Assembly (NCBI GenBank): GCA_963790835.1
Contig: CAWBPU010000001.1
Span: 1,342,057-1,406,056, forward strand
Direction of reading: 5' to 3'
DNA length: 64,000 nt
Source: an uncultured Chloroflexia bacterium
Lineage (GTDB): Bacteria > Chloroflexota > Chloroflexia > Chloroflexales > Kallotenuaceae
Positions 35,219 through 35,361 of this stretch are shown piece by piece (positions within the stretch are counted from its first letter, which is position 1; each line of letters begins with the position of its first letter). The notes beneath the pieces were generated by a model, which ran no database searches, was not told where the DNA came from, and saw nothing but the letters and a program-made list of their open reading frames with translations. A program made the translations under genes and the position numbers.

Positions 35219-35361
35219 CCAGGGCTCCGTCAACGTCCCATTCAAGACGACGACATGGTCGATAGTGTCACGCTCGGTGGAGCGAAGAGTCTGTCTCCGG
35301 TTCGGAAAAGATCCTTCACTCCATTCAGGATGACGGATTTCACGATGTTGACGGAACCCTG
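35219..35361 (+). repeat. Copy A of a ~145-155-nt intergenic palindromic-ended element (unclassified)
   Basis: CCAGGGCTCCGTCAAC...GTTGACGGAACCCTG termini pair over about 15-18 bp. The element aligns along its length with 51461-51616 (shared blocks TTCAAGACGAC, GTCGATAnTGTCACG, AAGAGnCTGTC, GTTCGGAA, ATCCTTCACT). Confidence 0.7.

Follow-up and report, generated by a model that had tools for sequence, protein, structure and literature searches.

The element that occurs twice in the window, as we call the whole stretch of 64,000 nucleotides analysed here (C1:1342057-1406056), is very probably an ordinary MITE that uses ISAs1-family ends and that, judging by its sequence, was orphaned in this genome without a transposase. 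The host genome (G000) comprises 3.37 Mb in two contigs, with a G+C content of 57.7%. The units of this family are short and non-coding, they are bounded by terminal inverted repeats and by duplications of fixed length, and they are present in many dispersed and polymorphic copies. The first-pass annotation had considered a MITE or DNA hairpin element among its readings, and had held that target-site duplications together with a cognate transposase would mark an ordinary MITE. Both were found: the duplications flank copies in this genome, and autonomous elements with matching ends are present in the same-genus sister species G001 and in other phyla, not in this genome.

Copy A is located at positions 35220-35361 (142 nt, forward strand), a non-coding segment between a PP2C phosphatase gene and mutL. 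Copy B is located at positions 51462-51615 (154 nt, forward strand), in the spacer that separates the divergently oriented genes of a PMT-type glycosyltransferase and an M20 peptidase. Both copies lie near gene starts. The two are collinear and in the same orientation, as had been described from inspection of the sequence, and blastn aligned them with 71% identity over 157 nt. The element had been rightly recognised at that stage, although its limits had been drawn to include one extra flanking base. The pairing of the termini was also borne out: in copy A the left terminal inverted repeat (35220-35238, forward strand) reads CAGGGCTCCGTCAACGTCC, and the right one (35343-35361, reverse strand) has the reverse complement CAGGGTTCCGTCAACATCG. 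The first 14 bases of the left repeat are identical to the inverted repeat of a 1,228-bp ISAs1 element of G001, described below. The TATAG-containing sequence noticed on both sides of copy A is present, and it corresponds to the 9-bp target-site duplication of this copy, TGTATAGTC at 35211-35219 and TCTATAGTC at 35362-35370, which agree at 8 of 9 positions. The duplication of copy B is decayed, with 7 of 10 positions matching between GCTTGTACCC (51452-51461) and GCTTGTTCTT (51616-51625).

On each of its two strands, copy A gives a single long hairpin (fold z = -5.3 and -6.3). Copy B has lost the inner stem and retains only the terminal stem, together with local hairpins (z around -4). The different hairpin that had been reported at the same place in copy B is real, and represents a module variant common to about 10 copies; this extra hairpin module, AGCGGGTGCCCGCT, is located at 51518-51531 on the forward strand and behaves as an insertion variant in the family members that carry it. 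On the contrary, a TTCRRGA motif said to recur three times per copy was found only twice in each of them, and its total in the window (30 occurrences, against 25.8 ± 5.7 expected) is at the level of chance.

The first-pass annotation had proposed a count of copies across the genome, and an iterated nhmmer search revealed 51 loci distributed over both contigs, 34 of them full-length; copy A was one of the two top scores in the family (112.4 bits, the best being 114.6). Nearly every locus was matched on both strands, indicating that the whole unit is an imperfect palindrome. The units are 125-171 nt long and non-coding, the open reading frames that overlap them being spurious read-throughs. They start with CAGGGCT… and finish with …AGCCCTG, and their terminal inverted repeats, of about 19 bp and starting with CAGGG, place CAGGGCTSCGTCAAMGTCC and its complement at opposite ends. 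Target-site duplications of 8-10 bp with no more than one mismatch flanked 19 of the 34 full-length copies, in comparison with 0.6 expected when right flanks were shuffled among loci (mean of the null; maximum 3). Most of these duplications measured 9 bp (11 copies); six measured 10 bp and two 8 bp. Most loci (37 of 51) fall between genes, coding sequence making up about 86% of the genome; they are enriched in divergent spacers, and no orientation preference relative to the neighbouring genes was observed across the 51 loci. The family is a mosaic, built of one common core and of sub-terminal modules around it that exist in several alternative forms. Paralogues within this genome are at most 88% identical (median 62%); the copies are old and decaying. 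For annotation purposes, the family accounts for two long spacers and for around fifty "unclassified" repeats of this genome.

Direct repeats of ISAs1-family elements are 8-10 bp long in the ISfinder table. The defining marks of the family are inverted repeats that start with CAGGG and measure 14-22 bp, plus a direct repeat close to 10 bp (PMC11946415); in its member ISArsp11 the inverted repeat is CAGGGCTGATGCAAAGTCG and the direct repeat measures 10 bp (PMC6305408). The repeats studied here show the same CAGGG start and a length within that range, together with direct repeats of 8-10 bp, and the ISArsp11 repeat differs from the CAGGGCTTGTGCAAAGTCG type of MITE terminus at 2 of 19 positions. 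The resemblance to ISAs1-family insertion sequences (e.g., ISAs1, ISArsp11, and two elements of G001) therefore comprises the CAGGG start, the repeats of about 18-19 bp and the duplications of 8-10 bp. The differences from them lie in the absence of a transposase gene, in the size of the unit (125-170 nt vs 1.2-1.5 kb) and in the interior, which is unrelated and palindromic.

Two autonomous ISAs1 elements were identified in G001. One of them (L136:1974-3201, 1,228 bp) has perfect 18-bp inverted repeats, CAGGGCTCCGTCAAAGTC, and a perfect 9-bp duplication, GACAAAATA; the other (L137:1746-3060, 1,315 bp) has perfect 18-bp inverted repeats, CAGGGCTTGTGCAAAGTC, and a perfect 10-bp duplication, AGCGCTGTAG. 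The open reading frames of both elements carry DDE_Tnp_1_assoc and DDE_Tnp_1 domains, and their inverted repeats are the two terminus types found among MITE copies. Among the terminus variants of the MITE are C8, G8, and the TTGTGCAA type. The MITE resembles these insertion sequences only over the terminal 14-21 bp, and since the similarity stops at the inverted repeat, the MITE is not a simple deletion derivative of either element.

The search for a transposase within the host genome gave a different picture from that in G001. Neither PF13808 nor PF01609, the models for DDE_Tnp_1_assoc and DDE_Tnp_1, had a match in this genome, and tblastn with the G001 transposases as queries yielded nothing, not even a remnant. 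In addition, no element of 0.7-4 kb bounded by paired MITE termini was found in it. Given that the genome holds no cognate transposase or remnant, mobility here cannot be current: the copies are fossils in the genome as assembled (the assembly is possibly incomplete, with a marker completeness of 85% and 3.37 Mb, vs 5.5-6.6 Mb in its congeners), while the sister species keeps two matching autonomous elements. ISAs1-type MITEs thus persist and stay polymorphic in a lineage that is now without their transposase. In a self-BLAST comparison, hardly any repeats longer than 400 bp were seen in this genome, and the two members of the largest pair, C2:77282-82350 and C2:606019-610925, share only 88-93% identity.

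G001 is the only one of 40 relatives that carries the MITE, with at least 40 matches, and its flanking sequences are 92-94% identical to those in this genome. Target-site duplications with no more than one mismatch were found in 14 of 26 family copies of that species. A check of insertion polymorphism had been suggested in the first-pass annotation, and we searched G001 with reconstructed empty-site joins for all 34 full-length copies. Thirteen sites were empty, with a single alignment across the junction, and another 13 were occupied, with the flanks 101-179 nt apart; only one flank was found for 5 sites, and no match for the remaining 3. The site of copy B is cleanly empty in G001, with the single target GTTTGTACGC. 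In the base-by-base alignment, G001 reads …GTTGTTTGTACGC joined directly to TGTTGGCGG…, so that exactly the element and one copy of the target are missing. At the orthologue of copy A in G001 the left part is gone, and the core and the right end are retained.

Identity in clear orthologous pairs of the two species is 94-99%, in comparison with 88% at most for the nearest paralogue, which indicates that most transposition predates the species split. These same values do not clearly separate gain in this genome from precise loss in G001 as the cause of the 13 G001-empty sites. Copies absent from G001 looked slightly younger, a difference that was not significant (p = 0.25). Precise loss by hairpin-promoted slippage between duplications is known for Tn5 and Tn10, and such slippage would give precise loss at the sites that are empty in G001. 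If, on the other hand, the 13 differences are gains, their source copies are missing from the assembly.

The orthologue of copy A is itself a site of insertion in the sister species. An IS110-family element of about 1.7 kb (approximately L175:346-2084, in G001:C44) sits inside its right arm, between …TTTCACAAC and TTTGACAAAACCCTG; it carries DEDD_Tnp_IS110 and Transposase_20 domains and its frame is interrupted. Repeated palindromes are known targets of IS110-type elements.

From what is known of the ISAs1 family, an ISAs1-type DDE transposase supplied in trans would bind the two inverted repeats of the unit, which would then integrate at a staggered cut. Repair of this cut would leave the direct duplication of 8-10 bp. 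The palindromic shape is due to the inverted repeats plus a palindromic filler, and a plausible origin for it would be an ISAs1-type end lying beside a pre-existing hairpin, with template switching across the palindrome copying that end to the other side. In its general features the element resembles the bacterial MITEs already described (Correia/NEMIS, ERIC, RUP, Nezha, and the Microcystis MaeMITEs; PMC2779907), which share with it a small size, the lack of coding capacity, the presence in multiple copies and a mainly intergenic location, as well as terminal inverted repeats, target-site duplications and the ability to fold into a long hairpin. It differs from them in its ISAs1-family termini and in the mosaic of modules around a shared core. 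A literature search, carried out without ISfinder, retrieved no paper describing an ISAs1-derived MITE; the present family documents such elements.

Other explanations were weighed against that of an orphan MITE. The presence of just two copies in the window might have reflected a local segmental duplication or a chance similarity; however, the 51 loci on both contigs, with differing flanks, and the matches in G001, at least 40 in number, leave this explanation with next to no probability. Another explanation was the functional RNA suggested in the first-pass annotation, that is, a structured non-coding or cis-regulatory RNA in which a long hairpin would be under selection at the transcript level, including identity with the Chloroflexi-1 motif. 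The stable fold of copy A on both strands and the location of both copies near gene starts would agree with such an RNA, as would the pairing of 79.6% of the cells on the copy A fold among 36 copies, vs 27-50% when the partners were slid. Nevertheless, almost all of this pairing within the copy A sub-family comes from invariant columns, and the inner stem is the part that copy B has lost. Moreover, RNAalifold on the pooled sub-families produced no consensus structure, mismatches in the arms were strand-symmetric (G·U 162 vs A·C 152, p = 0.61), the loci have no orientation bias towards their neighbouring genes, and the sister species lacks the element at half of the sites that could be tested. 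Comparison with Rfam, for the whole window at the gathering score, for the copies up to E 10 and for 11 doublet loci up to E 1, assigned no family, RF01698 included; at permissive thresholds there were weak matches to generic long-hairpin (miRNA-type) models, far below their cut-offs. Scans of copies A and B for promoter-like or terminator-like sites found none.

The C/G swap at position 9 of the arms, which had been put forward as covariation, is real when copy A is compared with copy B, but it does not hold as covariation across the 36 copies, where the pair was CG in 20 and GC in 3, against 11 copies with CA, GG, or CC. The long stem was therefore compensated 3 times and uncompensated 11 times at this pair. 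Similarly, the conservation of structure under sequence drift is due partly to the terminal inverted repeats and partly to the swapping of modules, and real covariation was found only in a small core hairpin, to which the first-pass annotation had drawn no attention. As for Chloroflexi-1 (RF01698), Chloroflexus aggregans is the only organism from which this motif was described (Weinberg et al. 2010, PMC2864571). Both are multi-copy, hairpin-containing motifs in a member of the Chloroflexota, but the RF01698 covariance model matches neither copy (E <=10) nor the stand-alone doublets (E <=1). Altogether, an RNA of this kind is very unlikely, and we conclude that, on current evidence, the element is not a functional RNA, which removes a false lead to a regulatory RNA near mutL.

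The small core hairpin deserves separate consideration, since a MITE could still contain a core with its own function at the level of DNA or RNA, for which ISAs1 ends would be one of several vehicles. In copy A the core forms an inverted doublet at 35267-35334 (arms at 35267-35291 and 35310-35334, with the apex around TTCGG), and in copy B the doublet occupies approximately 51507-51588. Each arm follows the pattern 5'-GTC-ANNCT-GAGYGGAGCGA-AGNNT-C, with a covarying stem of 5 bp and the 11-nt loop GAGYGGAGCGA. Seven different, fully Watson-Crick 5-bp stems were found around this same loop among 84 arms from 11 genomes, and mean pairing of the stem was 3.81 out of 5, above all of 2,000 shuffles of the partners (mean 3.04, maximum 3.31). 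The two arms of one doublet often differ in the stem triplet, indicating that what is kept is the local hairpin and not a long arm-to-arm stem. The doublet lies between at least five unrelated termini (CAGGGCT…, CTAGTACA…, GTAAYGCT…, GGTTAATACTACAACGAGAC… and GCTGCGGAAAAAC…). Its strict pattern was present in 10 of 301 Chloroflexota genomes, with zero matches for a reversed-pattern control; in several families of this phylum it is stand-alone or within elements with other termini, and it was also found in a Terriglobia (Acidobacteriota) MAG (L177-L188, L068, and L117 for these occurrences). A literature search for the core sequence retrieved just unrelated primer matches.

These observations favour a function for the core. 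Against it, only 36 of the 84 arms are fully paired, and the many decayed stems in this genome and in G001 indicate that current constraint here is weak; in addition, there is neither gene association nor strand asymmetry, and with this small sampling the different stems could descend within a few mobile lineages. We therefore regard a core with a function of its own as a possible but rather doubtful addition to the MITE, and only tentatively propose that the doublet is an undescribed and widely distributed functional module, absent from Rfam and unlinked to RAYT. Possible roles are those of a site for a host protein or a transposase accessory, an element of RNA stability or processing, or a palindrome that seeds MITEs. 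The core could be a site for a structure-specific protein or nuclease, or else it could give rise to new MITEs by serving as the template through which one IS end is duplicated on its other side. If functional, the doublet would represent a REP-like class of elements without RAYT, and a possible clue to the origin of MITEs with palindromic interiors.

This organisation of the core, two short palindromic units in inverted orientation, is also that of REPINs, and could suggest a REP/REPIN mobilised by a RAYT (a Y1, IS200-like transposase). The inverted pair of a short hairpin unit is, however, where the likeness to REPIN-RAYT systems ends: no association with a RAYT was found, and the complete element has the inverted repeats of 19 bp and the duplications of 8-10 bp that are marks of DDE, not HUH, transposition. 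The Y1_Tnp gene is absent from this genome and from 4 of the 10 other doublet-bearing genomes tested, and at none of the 12 Y1 loci examined was the hairpin present within about 1.5 kb, so that no Y1 gene flanked by the repeat units was observed. Mobilisation by a RAYT is accordingly most improbable, and the orphan MITE with ISAs1-family ends is retained as the best explanation.

The same core doublet was observed in a second repeat family of this genome, with four copies of about 150 nt located outside the window (C1:903147-903230, C1:992157-992247, C1:1141940-1142010, and C2:962628-962714). Its termini are CTAGTACA/CTAGTACAGCTTTGCG… and …TGTACTAG.

The distribution of the terminus of the orphan MITE was determined beyond the genus. 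In a scan of 185,579 species genomes, CAGGGCTSCGTCAAMGTCC was present in at least 115 stretches, in comparison with about 17 expected by chance (calculated), and the matches listed belong to Acidobacteriota, Chloroflexota, Actinomycetota, Planctomycetota, Proteobacteria, and an Undinarchaeota MAG. Among these listed matches, the ISAs1 terminus of about 19 bp is almost invariant from Actinomycetota to Acidobacteriota and the Undinarchaeota MAG. Inward of it, again among the matches listed, there are ISAs1 transposase genes, some of them with an N-terminal DruA-like domain, and short elements of 100-300 bp with palindromic interiors unrelated to the one described here. The occurrence of the same terminus around short elements with unrelated interiors indicates that ISAs1-type MITEs arose repeatedly.

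Regarding the N-terminal domain of some of the transposases that share the terminus, it was identified as DruA (Druantia protein DruA, DUF4338) by Pfam in L028, and as DruA-like by sequence resemblance in L052 and L126. These DruA-type ISAs1 transposases come from Terriglobia MAGs and from the Undinarchaeota MAG.

Elements of 1.93 kb from Acidobacteriota were taken as candidates for a second transposase family acting on these ends. This candidate was rejected, each being a MITE with a nested IS1182-like element. In the MAG MFD03726.bin.2.19 (Acidobacteriota), a 216-bp ISAs1-type MITE carries an IS1182-like insert (DUF772, DDE_Tnp_1_6), which is located at the same apical position in three loci (L060, L108, and L121). 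The 1.93-kb composite is flanked by duplications of 8 and 10 bp in L108 and L121, L060 being a partial match, and these flanking duplications suggest that the composite moved as a unit on the MITE ends.
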